Below, piece after piece: positions 2,754 through 63,872 of a stretch of 64,000 bases of DNA. The stretch is from Octopus sinensis (Eukaryota). The notes beneath the pieces were generated by a model. That model made no database searches and had not been told where the DNA came from. It saw nothing but the letters and a program-made list of their open reading frames with translations. Every line of letters begins with the position of its first letter. Position 1 is the first letter of the stretch. Position numbers and translations under genes: made by a program. The stretch lies in assembly GCF_006345805.1 (NCBI RefSeq), contig NC_043003.1, positions 68,882,001-68,946,000 on the forward strand. The letters are read 5' to 3'.

Positions 2754-3180
2754 AATGAGCTATTCACAGTAACATCGATCATGAAAGCAGTTTATCATGG
2801 CCGAATAGCCGGATTACTACCTCCCACTTTGAAGGGTATGCGTTTGAAATCCAGGAACAGGAAATATTAACCAAGTACCTGATTCACACAAGGGATAGAG
2901 ATGCAGGAAAAGCAGTAGAAAATGACAACCGATGCAGGCTTTGTGGAGTTCACACTGAAGATATCACCCACATCACAAGCAGTTGTCAGAAAATATATGT
3001 GAGCAGGTCAGGATATATAACTATATGCATGAGAATACATATATAAAACATACAAATCTGCACACATACGTACATACATACAAAAATACCCTGTCGTTAA
3101 AGTTGAAATTCCAATGAAAGAGCCTTGGACCTAGGTTAGAAACCAGTTCTTGAAATTACCTAAATAACGACATACATACA
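2754..3180 (+). mobile_element. Dong/R4-clade LINE fragment, internally deleted
   Basis: TSHFEGYAFEIQEQEI...CRLCGVHTEDITHITSSC (CCHC knuckle) joined directly to the same 3' UTR and (CATA)n. Confidence 0.8.
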
Positions 3181-8814: not shown

Positions 8815-9927
8815 ATATAAAATATATTTCTGTGTGTATACGTGCGTTTCTATATGAATGTAGATCTTTATTACGGTTATAGTTATGTGTTTCAGTTACA
8901 CAGTAGCCCACCTGAATCTTTTCTCGTCTAATTACTTCGAATTCAAGATTATATCAGCAGTTACATCCATGTCTCGTTTTGTTATTTTCATTTTCTCTTT
9001 CTTTTGGCCATTTTTTCGGTGGGGTGTTTCTCTCTTGTTTTTGTTTTCTTAAAAAACGTTTTTCTAATTTCGGTTTCAATATTTATTCCATTTTAAAATT
9101 CTTTAATCTATTTTCGGTTATTTCCCAATGTTTTAAGTAAGACATTTTTCACTTCTTTACGCTGTTTCTTCGAATATCTTCCCAGCTATTCGAAGAGGAG
9201 AGGAAGTTGTTTACAATGTATAAGGCTTGACGCAGTAAAAAGAAACGGAACAAAAAGTCAAAACCATACCTATTCTTTTTTTTCTTTATTTTTTCACTTT
9301 CTTGAAGTCGGAGACAAAATTTTTGTTTTTACCATTTTATTTTGTATATTTTGGCTTTGTATTTGGTATGTTTTCTTCGGCTTTTCTCTTATTGATGTTA
9401 CAACATTCGTCGTACGACTAAGGTTGTTGTTGCTGCGATTGCTTTTCATTTTTGTTCCTTCATGCTGTCTCCAGTTTGTCGCGTTTTTCATTCTTATTCT
9501 TTTGATATACTGAATCCTTTTGAATATTACACTTCAACTATTTTTTTCCGGCAACATTTTATACCATAGACACACTCCCAAATACAAACAAACACAAGCA
9601 CACACAAACACACACTCACATTTTGTCCGATTAAATGAATACCAAAACCACGTATTTATTCACTAGTATACATAGAAAACACACCCGCTGACACAAACAG
9701 GAAAACAGATTCCTGCATACACACATATCATATGTACGTTCGTGCCTGTGTATGTATGTAAATACATATATGCGGGTGTATGTGTGCGACTATTAATATA
9801 GAAATTTATACCATATACACATGTATATATACGTGTATACGTGTGTCTACGTGTATGCTGGTATACATGCACATACATATAAATGTAAAAACACACACAT
9901 TGACACGTACACAATTATATATGCTTG

Positions 9928-9969
<42 letters not shown>

Positions 9970-9991
9970 CAAGCATACATAATTGTGTACG

Positions 9992-10725
9992 TGTTTGTGT
10001 CTGCCTTCCAATTGCTGTTTTTACTGAGATCTCCCTTTTTAGTAGAAGAAATAGCTATAACCCTTTGACTGCTATTTCTAAATTCGGTATGTGGTAAGGC
10101 AATTCGTTGCTAAACCCTTTATTGCTTAGTATTACTTAAATTTTCCTCGAATGAGGCTTTTACATGCCGAAGACTACTTGGTGTAATTGATAATTATTCC
10201 AAATTAATTAATTTCACCCTTCATTATTACGGATAACCATATTTTATCTCAGTAGATGACCACAGCATCTTGTTTTGGCTACACGCGGGTGGGAAGGGGC
10301 TGGTGACACAATCTTTTCATTCACACTTTGAATTTGGTGATACTAGTTGCGGATTCTAGCTCGCTCTGATACTGAGTTGAGTTGGTGCCTTCTAGTATCT
10401 CAAAATTCAATATATAATCATTTATGATTATAGTATTCTACGCTGAAGAGAAAAGAAGTTTGGGTAAGGTAGAATTATTTAATATTTAATTCTTATGCTT
10501 TCCTAAAAACTTGATTTCGAAACGTGCGTCCGTAGATAACTTAAAATTGTATGATAGATTGCCGTCTATTCATTCTCTCTTACCTGTTTGTGTCTGCCTT
10601 CCAATTGCTGTTTTTACTGAGATCTCCCTTTTTAGTAGAAGAAATAGCTATAACCCTTTGACTGCTATTTCTAAATTCGGTATGTGGTAAGGCAATTCGT
10701 TGCTAAACCCTTTATTGCTTAGTAT
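9992..10725 (+). mobile_element. Retrozyme-like/Penelope pLTR-like element: 593-nt period, 141-bp direct terminal repeat, one HHR
   Basis: 9992-10132 and 10585-10725 read identical. No ORF, multiple internal hairpins, ends in (TA)n. Confidence 0.8.
10437..10536 (+). ncRNA. Type I hammerhead ribozyme with extended stem II
   Basis: tctacg|CTGAAGA|gaaa...(~69-nt hairpin)...tttc|GAAA|cgtgcg|TC|cgtaga. All core nucleotides intact; predicted cleavage after C10530. Confidence 0.85.
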
Positions 10726-10793
10726 ATATATATATATATATATAATATATATATATTACATTGTATATACATGTATACTTATATAAATATATA

Positions 10794-10832
<39 letters not shown>

Positions 10833-10856
10833 TTGTATATACATGTATACTTATAT

Positions 10857-10908
<52 letters not shown>

Positions 10909-11489: not shown

Positions 11490-12078
11490 TATCGGTTTCA
11501 CACATTTGACTGCGGCCATGCTGGAGCACCGCCTTTAGTCGAACAATTCGACCCCCAGGAATTATTCTTTGCAAGCCTAGTAATTATCCTATCGGACACT
11601 TTTGCCGAACCGCTAAGTTACGGGGACGGAAACACACCAACATTGGTAGTCAATCGATGGGGTGGGGACAAACACAGACACACAAACATGTATACATCTA
11701 TCTATATATATATATATAGTTGGAATTCACAAATAAAAACAAAAGATGAAGACGGGTATGCAAACAACAAACAGGTGTATATATTTTAACGCTCGGGAAG
11801 GTGAGAAAGTCTTTTACGTTTCGATCCGACGCTCTTCAACAGAAAGGAACATGAGAAACTAAACAGAGAGAGAATTAAAAAAAAAACTTTAGTGTCTAGC
11901 GATCGATCATAGCGATGGCTGGACAGTGATGGTCATGTACCAGATCCACTCACAAGGCTTTGGTCGGCCCGAGACTATAGTAGAAGAAACTCGCCAAAGT
12001 TAACACGCAATGGGACTGAACCCGGAATCATGTGGTTGGGATGCAAGTTTCTTACCACACGCCAACACCTGCGCCTGT
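11490..12078 (-). mobile_element. Family-A SINE split at its central (TA)n by a Penelope-like fragment (~11718-11935)
   Basis: SINE tail 11490-11700 and head 11935-12078. The insert carries the HHR-like ttGAAGAgcgtcggatcGAAAcgTA on the minus strand (11809-11847). Confidence 0.7.
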
Positions 12079-15414: not shown

Positions 15415-16695
15415 TTGGGTTGTCCATAAAGTACGTGCCGATTTATAATAGCTTACCTATCGACTTATTTTAGAATTTGGTTGAGTCCATAAAATAGAAT
15501 TTGACTACACCTCCATTTAGAGCACAGTTTAAGCTATTTTTTCGTGGAAGAAGGTTTATGTTCCTATAACCTGTGTTTATTCTGTATCCCTTTAAAATGG
15601 AAGATAAGAAAGTTCATTTTCGGCACTTGATGCTTTTCTTTTTCCGTAAAGGGAAAAATGCCTCACAAGCAACCAAAGAAATATTCGCAGTTTAAGGTGA
15701 TGTTTCTTTATCCGAAAGAACTGTACGGAAGTGGTTTGCAAGGTTCCGAGCTAGAGATTGTAGCCTTATTGATAAAGAACGATCAGGCAGTCCATCCGCT
15801 ACAGATGATGACCAAATCAAGTCATTAATTGAGAATAACCCATATTACACAACCCGAGAATTGGCAGAAAGCCTTAACCTATCAAAATCCGTCGTTCATG
15901 AGCACCTGGTAAAGCTTGGGTACACAAATCGCTACAATGTTTGGGTACCACATGAGTTGAGTGAGAAGAACGTTTTGGATCGCATTTCCATCTGTGATTC
16001 GCTTTATAAACGGAATGAAAACGCACCTTTTATAAAGCAAAGTGTGACAGGTGATGAGAAATGGATTATCTACCGAAATGTTCAGTGAAAGCGATCCTGG
16101 AGTAAGCAACATGAGCCACACTTAGCCACCCCAAAAGCGGGTCTGAACCCTAAAAAGTCTTGCTTTGTGTCTGGTGGGATAAGAAAGGAATTATGTACTA
16201 TGAGCTTCTTCCTAGTAACCAGACAATTAATTCTGAGAAATACTGCACACAACTGGACGAGTTAAAAGCAGCAATTCAAGAGAAACGTCCAGAATTGGCC
16301 AACAGGAAGGGTGTTGTTTTCTAACATGATAGTGCAAGACCGCACGTTTCTTTGGGAACCAGACAAAAATTGTTGCAGCTCGGCTGGGATGTGTTGCCTC
16401 CCTCCAAATTCACCAGATATTGCTCCTTCGGATTTCCACTTGTTCAGGTCTCTGCAAAATAGTCTTAATGGTAAAAGTTTCAATTCCTTGGATGACGTAA
16501 AAAATTACCTTGATGAATTCTTTGACATGACACTACCTCAATTCTGCGAAGAGGGTATTTTCAAGTTAAAGGAAAGATGGAGATGCATTGTGCAACAAAA
16601 TGGTTCTTATTTGGTTGATTGAAAATGTAATGGCAAGTATTTATTGACCTTTTTCTTTCCTTTAAAAATCGGCATGAACTTTCCGGACAACCCAA
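15415..16695 (+). mobile_element. Full-length mariner transposon (mellifera-subfamily-like), inactive
   Basis: TA|ttgggttgtccataaagtacgtgccgattt ... aaatcggcatgaactttccggacaacccaa|TA; 1281 bp. Confidence 0.95.
15597..16622 (+). pseudogene. Mariner DD34D transposase with stops and frameshifts
   Basis: MEDKKVHFRHLMLFFFRKGKNASQA; WVPHEL; VTGDEKW; HDSARPH; [22 protein letters not shown]. Confidence 0.95.
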
Positions 16696-18524: not shown

Positions 18525-19916
18525 CATATGTGTGCGTGTGTGCATGTGGGTGCTTGCTCGCGTGTGTGTTAGTGTGCGTGTATGTGTCAGTATTATTTGT
18601 GAAAAATACTTTTTCCGTGTAGCGTGCTAACTTAGAAAATTCTTACTTGAAATAAGCAGTAAGCTCTAAAATCTATTATGGATGTGTTCTTAAATATAAT
18701 GAAAAAAGACGCTTGTTAAATTATTTATGAAAGGAATGGTTTCTGTACAAATTTGAATTTTCCCTGTCACAAACATTTTTCTTCTCGAGGAGCTTCGAAT
18801 TGAAAATATGGCTGTTGATTTAATCATATAGTTTTCTTCCATGTTTTAGCCTTCAATATTTATTTCTGTTCGAAATATTGCATCAACATTTGATTTTTTT
18901 AAAGTAAGAAGTAATTGAGAATATGAAATTCTTCCAACCGGAATATGTCTCTCGTGAAATATTTTTGTCAAAACAATATTTTATTCAAGATATGTATTAT
19001 TCGTTCATTCTACATGACAGTTAAAACTGATGAGATGGTCTCAAAACGATTTGGACCGAGTTATGCAGTTCTGGATATCCCAAAAAAAAAACGGAATCTG
19101 GTGTATTTTACCATCTTTTTAATATCAGTATGTTGAATCCCGTATAATACATCAAGCAATGGAATATTGTGGAATTCTCAGCAAATACCGAATCAATAAC
19201 TACTTTTTCATTCCCACTAATGAAACTACAAAAGGTAAAAAAAGATGGACCTGCAAAAGGTCGGCAAATCACACGAAAGTATACAATACAAACGGATATT
19301 TGGCTTATACAGATTTGAATAGATTTAGCGTAGTTTTGTTTATTGTTCACATGCTTTGAACGTTATTGTTCTGCTCCTCACATATGCACATTTTCCTCCT
19401 TATCCAATAATTTCCCTCATATTATTTGTGCGTGTTGTTCTCCTTACACCTACTCAGAAGAAATTGGCACGACTTCGCCGATGTAATAACCGCACAAACA
19501 CGCGTGCGCGCGCACAACTGTGTGGCGGAGGAAGGGGGAGTATGTTAGTGAGCGTGTTTATGTTTGTGAGTGTGTATGCGTGTGCTAGTGTGTATTTGTG
19601 TTTGTGCGTAATAACAGTGTTTATCAGCGTACACTAAAACATTTTTTTTTATGAATTCGCACTGCTGATATTAGCGCATATATCCGTAGGATTTATAAGG
19701 CGTCAAACACGGTAAATACAACTGATTTGTTTGCAAGTGCCTTGAGAAGGTTCAAAGCAATGAGGGCCTTGAGGTTATAATTGGTTTTAATATTAGTTTA
19801 ATAAAAGGTTGCCCGACTAAAACTAGTCACAGACAGATCCTATTTCTAACAGCTAGCATTGAAGACGTCAATACGTCACAGCATAAGCTGAAAATCAGAT
19901 TCCATCTCAAGTCTAT

Positions 19917-19948
<32 letters not shown>

Positions 19949-19972
19949 CATACATACATACATACATACATC

Positions 19973-20470
19973 ATCAAAGCAGTGTATCATGGAGCAATAA
20001 CCAGATTACTACTTGCCACTTTGAAGAGCATACGTTTGCAATCCAGGAAATATCAACCAAATACCCGATGCACAAAAGAGATAGAAATGCAGGAAAAGCA
20101 GTAAAATGTGATAACCGATGCAGACTTTGTGGAGTTAACACCGAAGATATCACCCACATCATAAACAGTTGTCCAAAAATGTCATCACGGTATCATCTAC
20201 CGATGAGACATGATGTTGTAGCTAGGGCATTTTTTGATGAAGTCTGTCGGAAGAATAACCCCGAGGACAAAGAAATAAGAAATCAGTATGGTTGAAGTTA
20301 TAGCCACACATAAAACAAAACATACAAATATGCGCATATACATACATACACACAAACAAAAATACCCTGTTGTTGATGTTGAATTTCCAAGGAAGGAGCC
20401 ATAGATCTATGTTAGGAACCGGCTCTTTCCCTATTGGCAAGAAGTCTTGAAATAAAGCTGAATAATGACA
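19973..20470 (+). mobile_element. Dong/R4-clade LINE fragment flanked by (TACA)n on both sides
   Basis: ORF 20068-20295 CRLCGVNTEDITHIINSCPKMSSRYHLPMRHDVVAR (CCHC plus RH motif); same 3' UTR as the 2271-2752 copy. Confidence 0.85.
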
Positions 20471-21399: not shown

Positions 21400-22246
21400 T
21401 CTGTTATTCTTTTAATTGTTTCATGGTGGAGCACCGCCTTCAGTCGACCGCAGTACTTATTCTTTGTAAGCATAGAACTTATTCTATCGGCCTGCTTTGC
21501 CGAAACGCCAAGTTACGGAGACGTAAACATACCACCATCAGTTGTCAAGCGATGTTGTGGGGACAAACACAGACACAAACATATACACATACATAGATAC
21601 ATATATATATATATAAATGGATGAATGAATTATTCTTTGTTTACCGTTAACAGGGAAAATTCAATAAACAGTTACAAGGGTAGCAAAATGCACGCAAGTA
21701 ACACATACATAGATACATATATATGTATATATAAATGGATGAATGAATTATCCTTTGTTTACCGTTAACAGGGAAAATTCAATAAACGGTTACTAGGGTA
21801 GCAAAATACACGCAAGTAACACAAATGAAGCGACCTATTCAAAGATTGAAACTCCAGGTTAATGTGCAGTAATTTGTGTAGTATAAGTAAATAAATGGAG
21901 TCATCGTAATTGCTATAATGTCTTGTTGAGATGGGTTCTCTTTCTTTCCTGATGAGAAGATTGCATTTTACACCGTTTATTCCTTTGGAATAAAACCAAT
22001 GTTATCTTCGAAACATATTTCGAAAGTAAAAGAATTTTAATAACATCTTCGTTCAGCTCCATTTATTTACTTATATGTATATATATACGACGGGCTTCTC
22101 TCAGTTTCCGTCTACCAAATCCACTCGCAAAGCTTTGGTCAACCCAGGGCTTTAGTGGAAGACACCTACCCAAGGTGCCACGCAGTGGGATTAAACCCGG
22201 AACCATATGGTTGGTAAGCAAGCTACTTACCACACAGTCACTCCTG
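21400..22246 (-). mobile_element. Family-A SINE split at its central microsatellite by an HHR element (~21615-22075)
   Basis: Tail 21400-21590, head 22087-22246. Confidence 0.75.
21944..22026 (+). ncRNA. Type I hammerhead ribozyme with extended stem II
   Basis: ctttc|CTGATGA|gaagat..tttattcc-ttt-ggaataaa..atcttc|GAAA|catatt|TC|gaaag. Stem III has one mismatch; enclosed by a perfect 19-bp stem 21882-21900/22057-22075. Confidence 0.8.
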
Positions 22247-23373: not shown

Positions 23374-24697
23374 GCCAACCATTAGGTTTATCTCTCGGGG
23401 GATCAAATATGCAACGGTGTGGTTGCTATTTGATACCCCCGAAGAGGCTCGCAGATTCCTGGGCCAGCTACTGGGGGGCAGGAAAATATTGTTCCTTCCC
23501 ATTTATTGTGGAAAGAAGTTGACGAGGGCTTGGGTCTGCGGTTTGTCACCCAGAATTGAGCCCACGTGGATAGGGGATTCTATCCGCCGGGGTCTTGATG
23601 GCAACAGTATGTGAACATTTTGCCTGCGGCTGATTGGGAGGGGTCAAAAGCTGTTTTGAACCTATAGACCCAATCAGCTGTAAATCGGGTATTTCCAGAT
23701 TTTTTTAAGAATGGCCGGGTCTAGGTATCCGTTGATGCTTGAGGGATGCCCCCCACCCAAGTGTCACCTGTGCCTGGAACCGGGCCATATCAAAAAGAAC
23801 TGTCCTAAGGACCAAAATAAGGTCCTGGAGCAGTTGATAAAGATACCGCTCCCTGCTCCCTCTTTGGGGGGAGAGAAGGCGGAAGTCGAGGATGTGGAAA
23901 CCTCCTCAAAAAAAGGAAGAAAACGAAAAGTGGGCAACAATGGTTCCCCATCGAAGGATCCGAGGGTTGCAGGAGGGAGGGAGGATCTGCTGGACAAAGC
24001 AGAGAAACTCCACCCTCCCGTGGCTCAAAGGAAAAAAAAACAAAAAAGAAAATTGGGATATCGACGGCGGTTTGTGACACACTGCCGGCGTGTCCCGAAG
24101 CATCTTTGTTGGGAGTTGTGCCACCAAAGATGGAACTGTACACCCGCCCCTCCATGATGCAGAGGAGGAATTTGTTGTCCTCTTCTATAAGGGAGGAACA
24201 GTGGAATGCTTTGTCAAGAAGCTTAAAGTGAAGGGCCGAAGGGAGGGGATTCTGTCCTGCACAGAGGACCCTGACTAGCTTTCGATCTGTTCAGGATAAT
24301 GGAGTCCTTCCCCGAGGCTATCTTCAGATTTATGCTACATTGGCTCGGCTTGGCGCCGGCCAGGTGTTTAGCTGAGTGAGAAGTCTGGTTGGGCAGGAAG
24401 ACTATTTCATTGATTCATAAATGGACTTGTGTAAGAGGTTTATTGCCTCAAAATGGCTTTGTATGTCGTAAATGTAAGATATCTGTTGCCTCCTTAATGT
24501 GTTTTTGTAAGAGGTTTGTTGCCTCAAATATGTATTTATAAAGAACAATGTGCTCTGGTAAACAGTAATCTGTGGGCGTTTCTGTTGCCCTCATTATTAT
24601 CATATCATCTATCAACTCATCTCAATTTCTCCTTGTCCAGCCCACAGCCTCCTTTCTTTGTAAGGCACTTGTGGTCAATTTAATGAATAGAAGACGG
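23374..24697 (+). mobile_element. Tx1/L1-type ORF1 (gag-like) element without ORF2, inserted in a family-A SINE head
   Basis: FISRGIKYATVWLLFDTPEEA...LPIYCGKK...LEGCPPPKCHLCLEPGHIKKNCP (CX2CX4HX4C). The SINE starts at 23331-23373 and resumes at ~24698. Confidence 0.75.
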
Positions 24698-30968: not shown

Positions 30969-31014
30969 TATATATATGTATATATATATATATGTATGTA
31001 TGTATATACATATG

Positions 31015-31175
31015 AGGGGATTCTTTCAGACTCCGTCTACCAAATCTACTCAGAAGCCTTTGGTCAGCCCGAGGGTATATTAGAATACACCTGCCCAAGG
31101 TGTCACGCAGTGGGATTGAATCCCAAGCCATGTGGTTGGGAAGTAAGCTTCTTACCACGCTGCCACGCCTGCGCC
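31015..31175 (-). mobile_element. Family-A SINE head
   Basis: Matches the family-A consensus on the minus strand. Confidence 0.8.
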
Positions 31176-31264: not shown

Positions 31265-31900
31265 TGTACATTTTCTGGTGAAGTAGTGAGTTGGACGGAG
31301 CTGCTGTTTTCCGTACCTCCTGCCGTGAAGTGGGTTCATCTGATATCTAAGAAGAAAATTTGTCTAGATGCTCCCTGAAAACCTCCACATCTACAACTCG
31401 CAAATATCTGAGGCTATTTAGGAGAATGTTGAAAAGTTGTGTGGATCCTTGAAACCCAAGCTTTTACAGTATTGTGTCCTTATCCTAGATGAAGAAGACG
31501 GGATCTTTGGTATAATGCAGTGCTATCCCGTCCCGTGGTTGTTATAGCTTTCAATTTCAAAATTTGGAGCGAGACCTTCCAGGATCTTCCATATGTATAT
31601 CACTACATATCTTTTACCCCGCTTCTCTTTAGGAAGCAGAGCTTCAGTTCATTTAACCTCTCCTAATAGCTCACCAGCTTCATCGAGTTAATCTTCTTTG
31701 TGTAATGGCGCTAGATTGCCTCAAGTCCCGCCAGCAGCTTGGCAGTCTATGGTTACCACAGTTGGGAGCAGTAATCCAGACGGCTTAGAACGAAAGTTCT
31801 CCATATGAGTGGTATGGTATCTTTTGTTCAGGTTCTGAATCATCTCAGAATCCATTCAGCTACTCGTCTGAAGAGTATTGCTATCTTGGTAATAGGCACA
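31265..31900 (-). mobile_element. CR1-group LINE RT C-terminus
   Basis: WILR.FRT..LIWRTFVLSRLDYCSQLW..LEAI.RHYTKKI..Y.ERL..IYIWKILEGLAPNF. Confidence 0.8.
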
Positions 31901-32143
31901 GCGATTACTGCATGATTTGTTTTACACTAGTTGAACGCGTTACAAAAGGCGGCGAGCTTGCAGAAACGTTAGTAAGCCGCTGTTGACAGTGACTTCTAAG
32001 TTTCGGCCAGGTAAGCCATATACATATAGGTAATATATTTGTATACAACCACAAGGACAAGAGCTATGTGTAATGAATATGTATTTATTTAAACGCGTGA
32101 CTTCCATAAGATTGCGGCCGTTTCGTAACCTTCTTATTCATTC

Positions 32144-34260: not shown

Positions 34261-35946
34261 TGTTTCTTTATTAACCACACATGGCTGCACACAGACGGGG
34301 CAGATTACAAAGTAGAGCTTTTCTTTATGGGGAGAAAAGAGGAAGAAAAAAAAGAGTGGGGTAGGTTTTCGATCAAAAGGGATCGTAAATGTGAGAGAAT
34401 AAAAAGAAAGAAAAGAAAGAAGCGACCAATAGGGATCGTGTATTAGAGAAATTCCATGATGTAAAGTGTAAAGGGGGAAGCAGATAGGGTTTATCCGTGG
34501 AGAGAAAAACCTACAGAAAAGACCACGATAACCTCGTTCAATAATGTCACCTATTAACACATTTGTTTGCAAGTAGGTAACCCTCTGTTTAAAATTTTTC
34601 CGGGTTCATAGGATTATGCTCAAGGTAGCTTCGTCATTCATACGTGCCATCCTTGCTACATTCACCCATCTTTTTTTTTAAAACATTCGCAAAGACAAAA
34701 CTTGCCTCTACTCTCACTTTCCTTTTCAAGTGATACTTGAAGAAGTTGATGAGAGATTGACCAGAGAGGAAAGTGTTTGTCTCCGTTCCTTTCAGACGCG
34801 TCTACAAGATACATTCTTTCGCCATGGCCACAAGAATAATGAAAATAGTTCTTCCTTCCCGTTTGAAGGAAGCAGGCGTGACATTATTGACGATAGACTC
34901 GGCTGATAAACCGACTCGTCCCACGCGTGACAGCAGTCATTCGACTGCTCTTGTGGCTTTTGTTGTGCAGTAGTTGGACACTTCTTTTTCAAATGTGTCT
35001 TGCTTCCGCACAGATAGCAACGTGGTCGCCTGCCCTCTACCACTACATAGAGTTTGTAGCCTTCTGGCAGTTCTATAGTGGTGGGTATATTTTCTCTTGT
35101 TGTTTCATCCAATTGAAGGAGTAATTGGAGTGATTTTCCCACCCGGTTTTGCTGTTCTAGAACGGCGATTTCAAGAATGTTTGTCTCTACCATTTCAAAG
35201 CAGATGGCAGAGACTAACCATTGTATTTCTACTTTAGGTGGTACATTTTTTATTGTGATTTTCGTCACCCTCTGGCCTAGATAAGTTGGTATCATCACCA
35301 AGTCATATGTATGCAGATCCAATGTGGAAAATCGTTTCGCTAGATTTTCATTGTAGCAACGTACTTGGACTGTGCCAAACTTATGCCACCGACTAACGTA
35401 TTCCTTCGAATCCCATACAGGGCGATGGCATTTTTCGATTTTTTTCTGCGGTGCACTTTCTGGTCGTCTTGTATTCTTATTGATAACCCTGCATATTATT
35501 GTTTTTTGTTGTGTGTGTATTTTCCACGAGGAGTTGTGGAATGTGGAGATGCAAATTATATCCTTCTTTGGTGAGAAGTGCCTTTGTGTTGTTTATTTCT
35601 TGTGCGGTGAATTTGATAATTGTTCTCTTTTGTTTTATCGCTTCCGCAAAGTTTGTTTTCTTTTTGGTGGTGTTAGGGGCAGAGGAGTTAGTTGTAGCAG
35701 TTGAAGTCGTGGTACTAGTCTTGATGTTGACGGTGCTGTCTTCGGTGGGCGGCTTTGTGCTGATTTCGTTGTTGTTGTTGTTGGTAGTGATGGTAGTGGT
35801 GGTACTGGCATTCATGTTTGCGTCTGTATTCGTTTGTTTTGAAATCCCTTTCTCCGTCCTTCTTTCATCGACAAGTGGTGTAGGGAGTGGGGTAAAATCT
35901 AAGTTAATGTCTTTGGTGGCGGCGATGGTGAATGGCCTTGCGATGT
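34261..35946 (-). mobile_element. Tx1-like non-LTR element, ORF1 plus ORF2 C-terminal stub, within (GATA)n
   Basis: ORF1 with IPTYLGQRVTKITIKNVPP...VEGRRPRCYLCGSKTHLKKKC; stub FIILVAMAKECIL*TRLKG...KRWVNVARM; AATAAA then (TATC)n. Confidence 0.8.
34960..35940 (-). pseudogene. Gag-like ORF1 with CCHC zinc knuckle, frameshifted
   Basis: ORFs 35477-36202 (T/N-rich N-terminus, NFAEAIK) and 34792-35322. Confidence 0.75.
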
Positions 35947-40108: not shown

Positions 40109-40894
40109 CTGGGTCATCCCATAAATAATTACTTCAAATTTTTGCCACAAGGGCAACTTGGGAGAGGTGGGATGAGTCGATTACATCAACCCCAGTGTTC
40201 AACTGGTACTTATTTTATCGAACCCGAAAGGATGAAAGGCAAAGTCGACCTCGGTGGAATTTGAACTCAGAACAAAGCGACGGTGAAATACCGCTAAGCA
40301 TTTCGTGCAGGGTGCTAACGATTCTGCCAGCTCCCCCCTTTGGTCATCCGATAAATAATGCCGGTTTTTCAAAAGTCGGAGGTGGACAAGCTAAACTATC
40401 TGCATCAACTTGCTATAGAAGCAGGTAGTATTTTTACCTCATACTTATTCTTAGTGCAAGTTTTGAAGAGTGCAGTTGGATTTAACAGTTATGTTTTCAA
40501 AGCTGTAACGGAGGTGACAAAGGAGCATATTCGGCATATTTTGTTTTATGAGTTCAATAAAGGCAACAAAGCAACGGAAAGTGCGAGGAATATTAATGTA
40601 GTATATGGGGATCGGGCAATAAGCGTAAGCCAATGTCAACAATGGTTCCAGAAATTCGGAGCTGGAAACTACAACCTGAAAGAAAAACCTCGTCCTGGAA
40701 GATCTGTAGAGCTCGACGAGACCCAGGTGGAACAAAATCCTGTTGTGACTGTTGAGGAACCAGCATAGAGGCTTCGATTTGGTCATTCAACCACTCATCG
40801 ACATCTGCGTACCATTGGAAAAGTCAACAAATTGGGTCAATGGCTTCCTCACAAACTCTCTATGCTCGGCCACATTACATATGGGATGACCCCA
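40109..40894 (+). mobile_element. Internally deleted mariner
   Basis: TIRs ctgggtcatcccataaataatg / cattacatatgggatgacccca; transposase N-terminus EVTKEHIRHILFYEFNKG...QWFQKF..RPGR..QWLPHKL, then the 3' TIR. Confidence 0.85.
40130..40339 (-). mobile_element. Family-B SINE inserted in the mariner 5' TIR
   Basis: TSD-like duplication ggtcatcccataaataat / ggtcatccgataaataat. Confidence 0.85.
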
Positions 40895-54296: not shown

Positions 54297-54310
54297 TTCT
54301 ATCTTATATA

Positions 54311-55147
54311 CGTGGCCTGATCAATAAGTATCCGGACTGTTGCTATGAAAAAGACGCTAAAGCACGCAGTTCAAAGCCGTTTGGCAAAGATTGACCTTGA
54401 ACTCTGCTGAGTATGCGCACTAAGTTTTAATCTTCTATCTCACTTCCGCTTTTCACAGCAGTGCTTGGACGGAAGGTGTGTAGCGTGTGATCGTCGCATT
54501 GACCACGACAGAGAAAGTTAAGCAGAGAATCTGCATCAAATTTTGCCAAAAGCTTCGTGATACCTGCTCAGAGACCAAAGCAAAATTTTCAAAACGAAAA
54601 ACGTTTTCATCGTCCTCGCCTCAATCAAGGAGATCTTGTTCAACTGAAACCCGTGTGGCAGACATACGTTTCATACCCAAATATTCAGTGATAAGGAACT
54701 GAACTGAACCGTAACTAATATGCACATCCTCTGATAACTCACAAATGGTGATTCGACGATTTTCCCTCACAGCTGCATGCATATCTGCGATGTTTTTCTC
54801 AGTTCTGCAGATCGCGGGTCTCCTAGAACTTTCACCAACATCGACATTTTTTTCCGCCATCTTCTGTGCGACTCGTCCACTCCTCTCCATACACTTTCTG
54901 CAAATTTGCGTAGGCTTCTAAGTAGGTATCGCCGTGGCAACTTTCTCTGTCATGGTCAATTCGACGATCACACGCTGTACACATTCCTTCCAAACACTGC
55001 TGTAAACAGCGGGAGTGAGCTAGAATGTTAAAACTTAGTACGCATGCACAGGAGAGTTCATAGTCAATGTGTGCAAGGCGGCTTCATTCTGCGTGCTTTC
55101 ACTTCGTTACTATGCCAACAGCCCGGATATTTATTGATCAGACATCG
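54311..55147. mobile_element. Mariner derivative made of two inverted 5' ends
   Basis: 54311-54520 is the reverse complement of ~54940-55147. Transposase N-terminus appears on both strands (KQRICIKFCQKL on +; RENRRITICELSEDVHISYGSVQ..LGMKR on -). Confidence 0.85.
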
Positions 55148-55471
55148 TCTATTAACCTAATCATCATTGCATTTTGCATCTTACACGCCATAGATATGGC
55201 AAGCGATGTCGCTATGCTTTATACCATTATGTACAAAATTTCGTAAAGTACAAATCTTTTGTCTCTTACCTACTTCACTTATCAGACTGTGATTATGCTA
55301 GAGCAACGCCTCGAAAGATTTTTAGTCAAATAAATTAACCGTAGTGTTTACTATATATGTAGTTATCATTTCAAACCTACTACTTATCTCTTTTCGCCAA
55401 ACCACTAAGTTACGGCTGTCAACCAGATGTGGGTGGACAAACGCAGACACGAACACACACACATGTATGTA

Positions 55472-55506
<35 letters not shown>

Positions 55507-55532
55507 GATATATATATATATATATATATATA

Positions 55533-55798
55533 ATTAATTAGAGACAAAACCACTATTATGCAAATCAAACAAAGAAAGACTTAATCCAATACATAAAAAA
55601 TTTTATATAAATTAAATATAATCTTAATTATATTTAATTTATATAAAAAATTTTATGTGTTGGATTAAGTCTTTCTTTGTTTGATTTGCATAATAGTGGT
55701 TTTGTCTCTAATTAATATTATATTATATTTTACTATAAAATTGGATTCAATCCTAAATCTGATTTTTCCCTGTAAATTTGGATTTATTCCCTAATATT

Positions 55799-55803
<5 letters not shown>
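55533..55803. repeat. Asymmetric fold-back palindrome in (TA)n
   Basis: Arms ~55533-55622 / 55626-55716 plus extension to 55803; same family as 57006-57331. Confidence 0.85.
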
Positions 55804-55839
<36 letters not shown>

Positions 55840-55960
55840 TATATATATATATAATATATATATGATAAATGAAAAAACGAAGAACAGACACACAAAAAAC
55901 AACACGAGGACGTGGTACAAGTAAGGTACTAGCAGACGCTCGACGAAGTAAAGAAATCTG

Positions 55961-56937: not shown

Positions 56938-57005
<68 letters not shown>

Positions 57006-57010
<5 letters not shown>

Positions 57011-57323
57011 AAATATTAGGGAATAAATCCAAACTTACAGGGAAAAATCAGATTAGGATTGAATCCAATTTTATAGTAAAATATTATATTATATTAAATT
57101 AGAGATAAAACCACTATTAGGCAAATCATACAATGAAAAACTTAAGCCAATACATAAGATTAATTAATTTATATTATTTAAATATATATAAAAATTATTA
57201 AAATGAATTATCTTTTTTAATAATTTTGATATATATTTAAATAATATAAATTAATTAATCTTATGTATTGGCTTAAGTTTTTCATTGTATGATTTGCCTA
57301 ATAGTGGTTTTATCTCTAATTTA

Positions 57324-57331
<8 letters not shown>
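57006..57331. repeat. Asymmetric fold-back palindrome in (TA)n, inverted relative to 55533-55803
   Basis: Extension 57006-57085, then ~115-bp arms. Confidence 0.85.
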
Positions 57332-57355
<24 letters not shown>

Positions 57356-57559
57356 GATATAGGCAAATCAAATAGGAACAGTAAACACAACGGTTAGTTG
57401 GGTTTACACGATGAATACGACTATATTGGGCTGATTCTCTGTGAAAGTGTTTAGATGAAAAAACAGCAGTGACGTTCCGAACATGGGTCTTCGTCGAAAA
57501 GCGCAAAAAAGTACAGAGAAAAAGAAAAGGAGAAAGGATCGAATAGTTCGAGAAAAGCA

Positions 57560-63645: not shown

Positions 63646-63709
<64 letters not shown>

Positions 63710-63712
<3 letters not shown>

Positions 63713-63872
63713 GACAGGCTTCTTTCAGTTTGCGTCTACCAAATCCACTCACAGAAAGAGTTGGTCGGCCGGAGGCTATGGTAGAAAGCACTTACCCAAG
63801 GTGCCACGCAGTGGGAATGAACTCGGAACCATGTGGTTGGCAAGCAAGCTACTTACCACACAGCCACTCCTC
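63710..63872 (-). mobile_element. Family-A SINE head in (TA)n
   Basis: cccaaggtgccacgcagtggg...cttaccacacagccactcct. Confidence 0.85.

Follow-up and report, generated by a model that had tools for sequence, protein, structure and literature searches.

The locus raises the question of whether a hammerhead-like motif with a short palindromic stem III and a very long stem II is a self-cleaving ribozyme and, if so, what kind of element carries it and in what form of transcript it would cut. The motif lies on the plus strand at 10437-10536 of the window, by which we mean the whole 64-kb stretch of DNA that was analysed. This window is AT-rich eukaryotic DNA (GC 30-43%) with dense TA, CA and ATAG microsatellites and decayed transposon ORFs, a repeat landscape suggestive of an octopus. 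We consider it rather probable that the locus is one dispersed copy of a non-LTR retrozyme that a Penelope-like element mobilised. Its ribozyme would, by prediction, be most active as a double hammerhead, in transcripts that contain tandem copies.

All parts of the type I hammerhead named in the original prediction are found on the plus strand where it had placed them. The 5' strand of stem I (10437-10442) can form six Watson-Crick pairs with 10531-10536, and is followed by the catalytic core CUGAAGA, which matches CUGANGA (10443-10449), by the 69-nt stem II domain (10450-10518), by the core GAAA (10519-10522) and by stem III, ACGUGCGU (10522-10529). By the established chemistry of hammerheads the predicted cut falls 3' of GUC, after C17 at 10530. 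The 3' strand of stem I then runs on into U10537 (10531-10537), which is position 1.7 and the first base of loop 1. Stem II begins with a 4-bp helix II (10450-10453 with 10515-10518, including G10.1-C11.1; pair probability 0.94-0.98), opens into a 2x2 internal loop and continues through 21 further predicted pairs to a 9-nt apical loop. The core criteria of PMC3088659 are C3 U4 G5 A6 N7 G8 A9, G12 A13 A14 A15 and U16 H17; all core bases and closing pairs demanded there (1.1-2.1, 10.1-11.1 and 15.1-16.1) are present at 10437-10536, as are three helices, with helix I open.

With a strict descriptor, whose thresholds were the values observed at the motif itself, and with a relaxed one, this is the sole such motif in the window. 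Across 2159 block-shuffled 64-kb windows, the strict descriptor gave a single match and the relaxed descriptor eight. A looser scan of the window gave one extra weak candidate at 18800, with an altered core, and degenerate core-like stretches near 10167 and 10300 contain no complete motif. The Rfam model Hammerhead_1 (RF00163) aligns exactly to 10437-10536 with 21.2 bits (E 0.021) and a 65-nt insert; this is short of the 34-bit gathering score, and nothing else in the Rfam scan of the window attains a gathering score. No other ribozyme family was found at the locus to E 10, and the minus strand has no hammerhead core with zero or one mismatch. Taken together, the 111-nt region shows only modest folding (z -1.69; 14/200 shuffles as stable). 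At the level of sequence, 10437-10536 is confirmed as a complete type I hammerhead motif, for which self-cleavage is predicted.

Stem III had been described as self-complementary over its whole length between two molecules, and the computation bears this out, with pairing at 8/8 positions at -8.8 kcal/mol, two of the pairs being G-U. The short hairpin proposed for the monomer is better drawn as 2 bp with a tetraloop than as 3 bp with a 2-nt loop. A dimer-type stem III is ordinary in itself. The one found here has 7/8 letters of the Rfam Hammerhead_1 consensus, and palindromic stems III are general among repeat-type hammerheads according to the legend of Fig S8 in PMC3088659. The description of the motif as an unusual hybrid is therefore not upheld, since animal type I hammerheads normally have a short palindromic stem III.

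A ribozyme on its own preferentially folds with 10440-10443 paired to 10526-10529, which ties core C3 to stem III and blocks the core. Stem III then has a predicted probability of 0.01, ensemble folding gives the misfold a probability of 0.37-0.80 at the locus, and the active single fold lies 2.7 kcal/mol above it. For two ribozyme strands the unconstrained lowest-energy fold is the double hammerhead (-52.4 vs 2 x -22.1 kcal/mol), and the same structure has the lowest energy when the whole unit described below is folded in silico as a tandem dimer, 5.6 kcal/mol below two single active folds. In the ensemble of the tandem dimer the double hammerhead (~0.44) is level with the misfold (~0.43). 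The folding supports a predicted preference for the dimer, not a requirement. Of the suggestion that the motif cleaves only in multimers, the preference survives, as the double hammerhead is the best fold, while the requirement does not, as comparable monomers cleave and the nucleotides for tertiary docking are present. Even the preference is not secure, because the gap of 2.7 kcal/mol could be offset by tertiary docking and Mg2+. The locus has one ribozyme only and therefore offers no dimer in cis.

The same element could instead carry a ribozyme that is efficient as a monomer, with loop 1 docking on the internal loop of stem II in the style of the CChMVd minus hammerhead and with the palindrome of stem III as an inherited family consensus. 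We regard this as possible, if on balance somewhat doubtful. The docking motif of natural hammerheads consists of a U at 1.7, a pyrimidine at the end of loop 1 and a purine:A opposition at the base of loop 2 (PMC2632901, PMC9217987). The locus has U10537 at position 1.7, U10436, which ends loop 1 on the opposite strand, and the opposition A10454:A10514 at the canonical loop 2 position, four pairs up stem II. The predicted docking site is the internal loop 2 (10454-10514, plus strand), in which A10454 and G10455 lie opposite G10513 and A10514 in accordance with the motif of PMC2632901. Against this, the four docking bases would be expected by composition in about 1 in 35-40 cases, a hand estimate for bases chosen after the fact. 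The helix lengths of 6 and 4 bp are canonical (PMC4209133). Type I hammerheads of invertebrates with a stem III of 2 bp and a tetraloop cleave as monomers (PMC7229834, PMC7761336), the retrozyme monomers of a coral and a mussel at ~0.8 and ~0.1 per min (PMC7229834). The energy gap that separates the active single fold from the misfold also speaks for the monomer in being so small, while the near-zero probability of stem III and the prominence of the misfold in single copies speak against it.

The motif belongs to a 593-bp non-coding unit on the plus strand (10133-10725; 35% GC). The 3' end of this unit (10581-10725) is repeated on the same strand at 9988-10132, where a second copy of its last 145 bp, without the ribozyme, is identical at 144 of 145 positions. 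The locus hence consists of 1.24 units with one ribozyme, and the unit ends 195 nt past the predicted cut site. At the 3' junction the unit end overlaps by TAT with a (TA)n microsatellite (10723-10905), the likely insertion target, and no target-site duplication is readable within the (TA)n. The 5' junction has a short overlap with a (TA)n-centred fold-back in the flanking DNA (9903-9994; 29-bp arms at 9903-9931 and 9966-9994). Among the 19 fold-backs listed in the window this alone has arms that are not microsatellite, and it may be the trace of snap-back priming at insertion, on a nicked (TA)n target. Matches to Rfam microRNA families at 9901-9997 were rejected, being below cut-off and produced by the TA fold-back.

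No coding remnant was detected. Pfam gave no match for the unit in 6/6 frames, and the longest frame near the ribozyme, 66 aa over its 3' half, has no homologue. The one upstream frame given a full phmmer search was discarded, with one borderline hit (E 8.6e-4) without a reverse transcriptase (RT) or endonuclease domain and with sub-threshold Pfam matches only. An ORF with RT and GIY-YIG domains was not found at the locus by Pfam or by phmmer of that frame, nor was a helper Penelope ORF among the 24 other ORFs of the window that were scanned. Neither a tRNA gene nor a Pol III box was found. There is no second copy of the unit in the window by nhmmer or by blastn, which gave microsatellite matches only, and blastn found no relatives in the phage and plasmid collections. 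A pattern search of GTDB for the core and stem III with a gap of 45-75 nt returned 55 hits, all of which we treat as chance because none has at least four stem I pairs and none matches the unit. The motif, the unit, the terminal repeat and the (TA)n junctions, without a detected coding remnant, are present in the sequence itself.

The same features could mark the 3' end, or pseudo-LTR (pLTR), of an autonomous Penelope-like element, present as two 5'-truncated copies in partial tandem. A hammerhead ~195 nt from the 3' end, a partial tandem and a (TA)n target are Penelope features (PMC8557442, PMC4209133), and pLTRs and retrozymes are related (bioRxiv 2026.07.22.740005). We nevertheless consider this origin unlikely. 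The 300 bp upstream of the ribozyme hold no ORF remnant by Pfam in six frames and phmmer of one frame, and sequence up to 270 nt upstream is predicted to pair with sequence downstream of the cut, so that the entire unit resembles a single RNA fold. By eye the locus resembles neither the Hydra-1_oBim ribozyme nor the 3' ends of two Naiad consensuses from octopus. Two short motifs of the window are absent from the PLE consensus supplement of PMC8557442, in which line breaks could hide a match. The repeated 145 bp exclude the ribozyme, although the partial tandem and the position of the ribozyme do fit a pLTR.

The predicted fold of the unit bears on its nature as an RNA. As a plus-strand circle it reaches -156.6 kcal/mol with 66% of its bases paired (z -5.2, none of 60 shuffles as stable), and the circle with the ribozyme removed has z -6.1 (0/60 shuffles). 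The minus-strand circle is weaker (z -2.5, again 0/60). The plus fold contains 25 G-U pairs, and together with the strand asymmetry this is as expected for selection on RNA. As controls, 104 other 593-bp windows were considered, of which 80 were dropped and the 24 with less than 3% microsatellite were kept and compared with five shuffles each; their z values range from -3.4 to +1.5 and none is as strong as the unit. The next strongest circular fold is that of the control window 31430-32022 (z about -3.4). A long-range interrupted helix on the plus strand (10262-10611), in which 10262-10320 pairs with 10551-10611 with helix probabilities of 0.86-1.0, carries the ribozyme at its tip. This duplex has -53.5 kcal/mol, a value equalled by 0/1000 shuffles and 0/981 window segments, for regions picked after seeing the fold. 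If formed, the helix would bring together the ends of a monomer running from cut to cut. A 3'-terminal hairpin on the plus strand just before the 3' junction (10690-10720) is weakly predicted (probability 0.35) and also appears in linear folds. A 12-bp helix across the unit junction has a probability of 0.88, but 131 of 2000 shuffles are as good and it is not significant.

Taken as a Penelope-mobilised retrozyme, the locus can be explained by a series of steps, in which the highly paired plus circle, the misfolded single copy and the double hammerhead of two copies are predicted by folding. Tandem source loci elsewhere would be transcribed. Their ribozymes would act best as double hammerheads, cutting 3' of GUC, and the 593-nt monomers so released would be made circular by a host ligase. 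The competing helix 10440-10443/10526-10529 would keep the circle mostly uncut and is a possible built-in off switch for it. Priming by a Penelope-type enzyme that targets (TA)n would follow inside the RNA, at the TAT overlap with the target and 195 nt beyond the cut, and the enzyme would copy a circular or tandem template through the intact cut site, once round plus ~145 nt. The far end of the cDNA would be joined to the folded-back flank. In the ribozyme, the long stem II would hold together the weak, A-U-rich helix II of 4 bp, and its internal loop would replace an apical loop 2 in docking with loop 1. If stem II has this structural role and its internal loop docks, slow cleavage of the monomer is therefore also expected. 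The present copy, with one ribozyme, is likely a dead end. Against this reading, predicted Xenopus retrozyme dimers gave no cleavage in vitro in 8 of 9 cases (bioRxiv 2026.07.22.740005). Several of these steps have published counterparts: more-than-unit cDNA from circular templates with Penelope elements as helpers (PMC7761336, PMC7229834), retrozyme units of 51-972 bp that occur as dispersed monomers and are kin to pLTRs (bioRxiv 2026.07.22.740005), internal initiation at AT-rich targets (PMC11167929) and Penelope clades that target (TA)n (PMC8557442).

The three segments of stem II originally proposed to pair do so in the minimum-energy fold (10450-10453/10515-10518, 10456-10460/10508-10512 and 10471-10477/10487-10493), and the predicted fold adds two more (10461-10464/10502-10505 and 10466-10470/10497-10501) for a total of 25 pairs. 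Folded alone, stem II has -15.7 kcal/mol (z -3.1), and 6 of 1000 shuffles are as stable. Among 401 GC-matched natural 69-mers of the window, ten are as stable and three are closed at both ends by four pairs. When 10456-10512 is deleted in silico, the pairing of helix II, 0.98 in the intact form, drops to 0.59 for the monomer and 0.37 for the dimer, so the long arm likely props up the A-U-rich helix II. We conclude from the folding that the extension likely has a structural role. A 6-nt AU palindrome in the apical loop was considered as a kissing site and would be too weak.

Stem II had instead been proposed as an insert free to bind protein, and it could be a separate binding site, for example for a helper reverse transcriptase. 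The extension is a stable interrupted hairpin, and cleavage by the Poseidon hammerhead requires the element's own protein (PMC11167929). For the locus itself we found no evidence of such a role: no known protein-binding RNA family matches the arm in Rfam to E 10, its removal in silico destabilises helix II, pointing to a structural role, and the arm is not special because the remainder of the unit is no less structured. We therefore think protein binding by a separate insert quite unlikely.

It is very unlikely that stem II is a splicing-linked switch. According to this explanation the arm buries a donor-like GGTAAG (10463-10468), and an intron from there to an acceptor-like pyrimidine tract at 10623-10635 would remove the cleavage site, so that spliced RNA would escape cutting. 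Donor-like and acceptor-like signals are both present, and Penelope pLTRs carry retained introns, one of which, in D. virilis, ends in helix I (PMC4209133). Both kinds of signal, however, are short and frequent where DNA is AT-rich, with ten occurrences of GGTAAG on the plus strand and 23 acceptor-like tracts in the window, and there is no downstream ORF to profit. Two further donor-like sites lie near the 3' end of the unit (10679-10691), and a retained intron of the Penelope type overlapping the ribozyme is possible.

That the locus is a local tandem duplication of ordinary DNA with a chance or long-dead ribozyme-like pattern, as its single copy in the window and an Rfam score below cut-off might suggest, is most improbable given the single match in 2159 shuffled windows, the intact core, a unit fold of z -5.2 with strand asymmetry and the 0/55 prokaryotic pattern hits with at least four stem I pairs.

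Remains of other mobile elements surround the unit. Mariner transposase remnants with a Mos1-type HTH lie at 15696-16619 and 40355-40765, the former with its best protein matches in ants and bees (62-73% identity). Related LINE fragments with weak zf-RVT matches are found at 2759-3043 and 19726-20292, and zinc-knuckle ORF remnants with weak matches, possibly from a retrotransposon ORF1 or gag, at 23684-24154 and 34795-35592. Long self-inverted elements, probably MITEs or transposon ends, occur at 57081-57338 (arms up to 119 nt at 99%), 55520-55728, 54306-55152 and 71-202, and the regions 55495-55863 and 56943-57361 are related to each other. An abundant SINE-like family is dispersed in both orientations (11886-12071, 22061-22246, 30986-31171 and 63687-63872, among others). 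About 430 bp upstream of the element, 8880-9560 is repeat-free and T-rich with several CpG, and might belong to the 5' part of a minus-strand host gene.

If further copies confirm the Penelope-mobilised retrozyme, the known range of non-LTR retrozymes would grow to include a larger unit whose ribozyme has a long arm. The number of ribozymes counted in such genomes would then be too low, because the long-armed type scores below the Rfam cut-off and does not fit published descriptors with a short spacer of 7-17 nt (PMC8557442). The locus would also be a clean footprint of a proposed and little-tested step, in which reverse transcription into a TA repeat starts internally and covers more than one unit. 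It would likewise be a natural construct for asking why animal retrozyme circles stay uncut, a question left by PMC7229834. We further speculate, while thinking it unlikely, that there is a hidden class of animal retroelement hammerheads with core halves 50-70 nt apart and a long stem II that docks via an internal loop, off in single circles and on only in tandem RNA. The (TA)n-targeting Penelope clades reported without ribozymes and their retrozyme passengers may then carry working ones; hammerhead 'half cores' 35-50 nt apart have been described in Naiads. Were such a class real, working ribozymes in Naiads and retrozyme passengers would be plausible because the standard descriptors and the Rfam cut-off miss long stems II.

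In open-licence full text we found no report of an octopus retrozyme, nor of an animal type I hammerhead with a 69-nt, 25-pair stem II; an octopus repeat library is cited in PMC13282606. Long domains II have precedents in ASBVd (PMC6155905), in CChMVd minus (PMC2632901) and in Selaginella PLE-X1_sMoe, which at 52 nt has the longest stem II domain among the Penelope tables compared (supplement of PMC8557442). In the animal Penelope examples compared this domain has ~10-25 nt, against 69 nt at the locus. The 7-8 bp of Schistosoma (PMC4209133) contradict the earlier premise that stem II is usually very short in Penelope hammerheads.

The closest likeness is to the metazoan non-LTR retrozymes (PMC7229834, bioRxiv 2026.07.22.740005). 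Like the available examples of these, the locus has a 6-bp helix I, a 4-bp helix II and a short palindromic helix III, in a non-coding unit of less than 45% GC with a highly self-paired predicted circle and a dispersed copy of more than one unit. At 593 bp the unit is inside the vertebrate range of 51-972 bp (bioRxiv 2026.07.22.740005) and longer than the 150-450 bp of PMC7229834. Unlike in these retrozymes, helix II runs past the internal loop into a 55-nt extension instead of a short apical loop 2, and the locus has 1.24 units with one ribozyme. Most of the animal circles described in the portions available leave the ribozyme free to fold, whereas the single ribozyme here is predicted to misfold. 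Retrozymes are recognised by a type I hammerhead in a short non-coding unit of less than 50% GC, which describes the locus. Active ones have at least two ribozyme-bearing tandem units, and without these the locus is not classed as an active member. It fits the dispersed 'monomer derivative' class of bioRxiv 2026.07.22.740005.

The Penelope pLTR hammerheads (PMC4209133, PMC8557442) share with the locus the type I topology, a palindromic stem III suited to dimers, a partial tandem and a position ~100-200 nt from the 3' end, and a (TA)n target is known in the Hydra, Naiad and Neptune clades (PMC8557442). They differ in the portions compared in that at the locus no ORF was found, A9 is followed directly by G10.1 and helix I has a full 6 bp. 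The Penelope minimal hammerhead has a missing or minimal helix III, an extra base after A9, a short helix I and no tertiary contacts (PMC4209133), and is ruled out for the locus by the 8-nt stem III, the lack of the extra base and the 6-bp helix I.

The double hammerheads of ASBVd and newt also have an unstable helix III that is completed by a second copy, and ASBVd too is without a clearly delimited helix II (PMC6155905), while the locus is a genomic DNA copy in an animal-type genome. There is no sign of symmetric rolling-circle replication, because the minus strand is without a ribozyme core, and a viroid-like circular RNA with a ribozyme on both strands was rejected on this ground and for want of any other family to E 10. 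The CChMVd minus hammerhead (PMC2632901) is similar in its long domain II, where an internal loop takes the place of loop 2 and has a purine:A opposition at its base; this ribozyme has an apical loop 1 and comes from a plant viroid, whereas the locus has type I topology with loop 1 internal or open. In this company the 69-nt second arm is the unusual feature of the locus, and the rest of the system is of a known kind.
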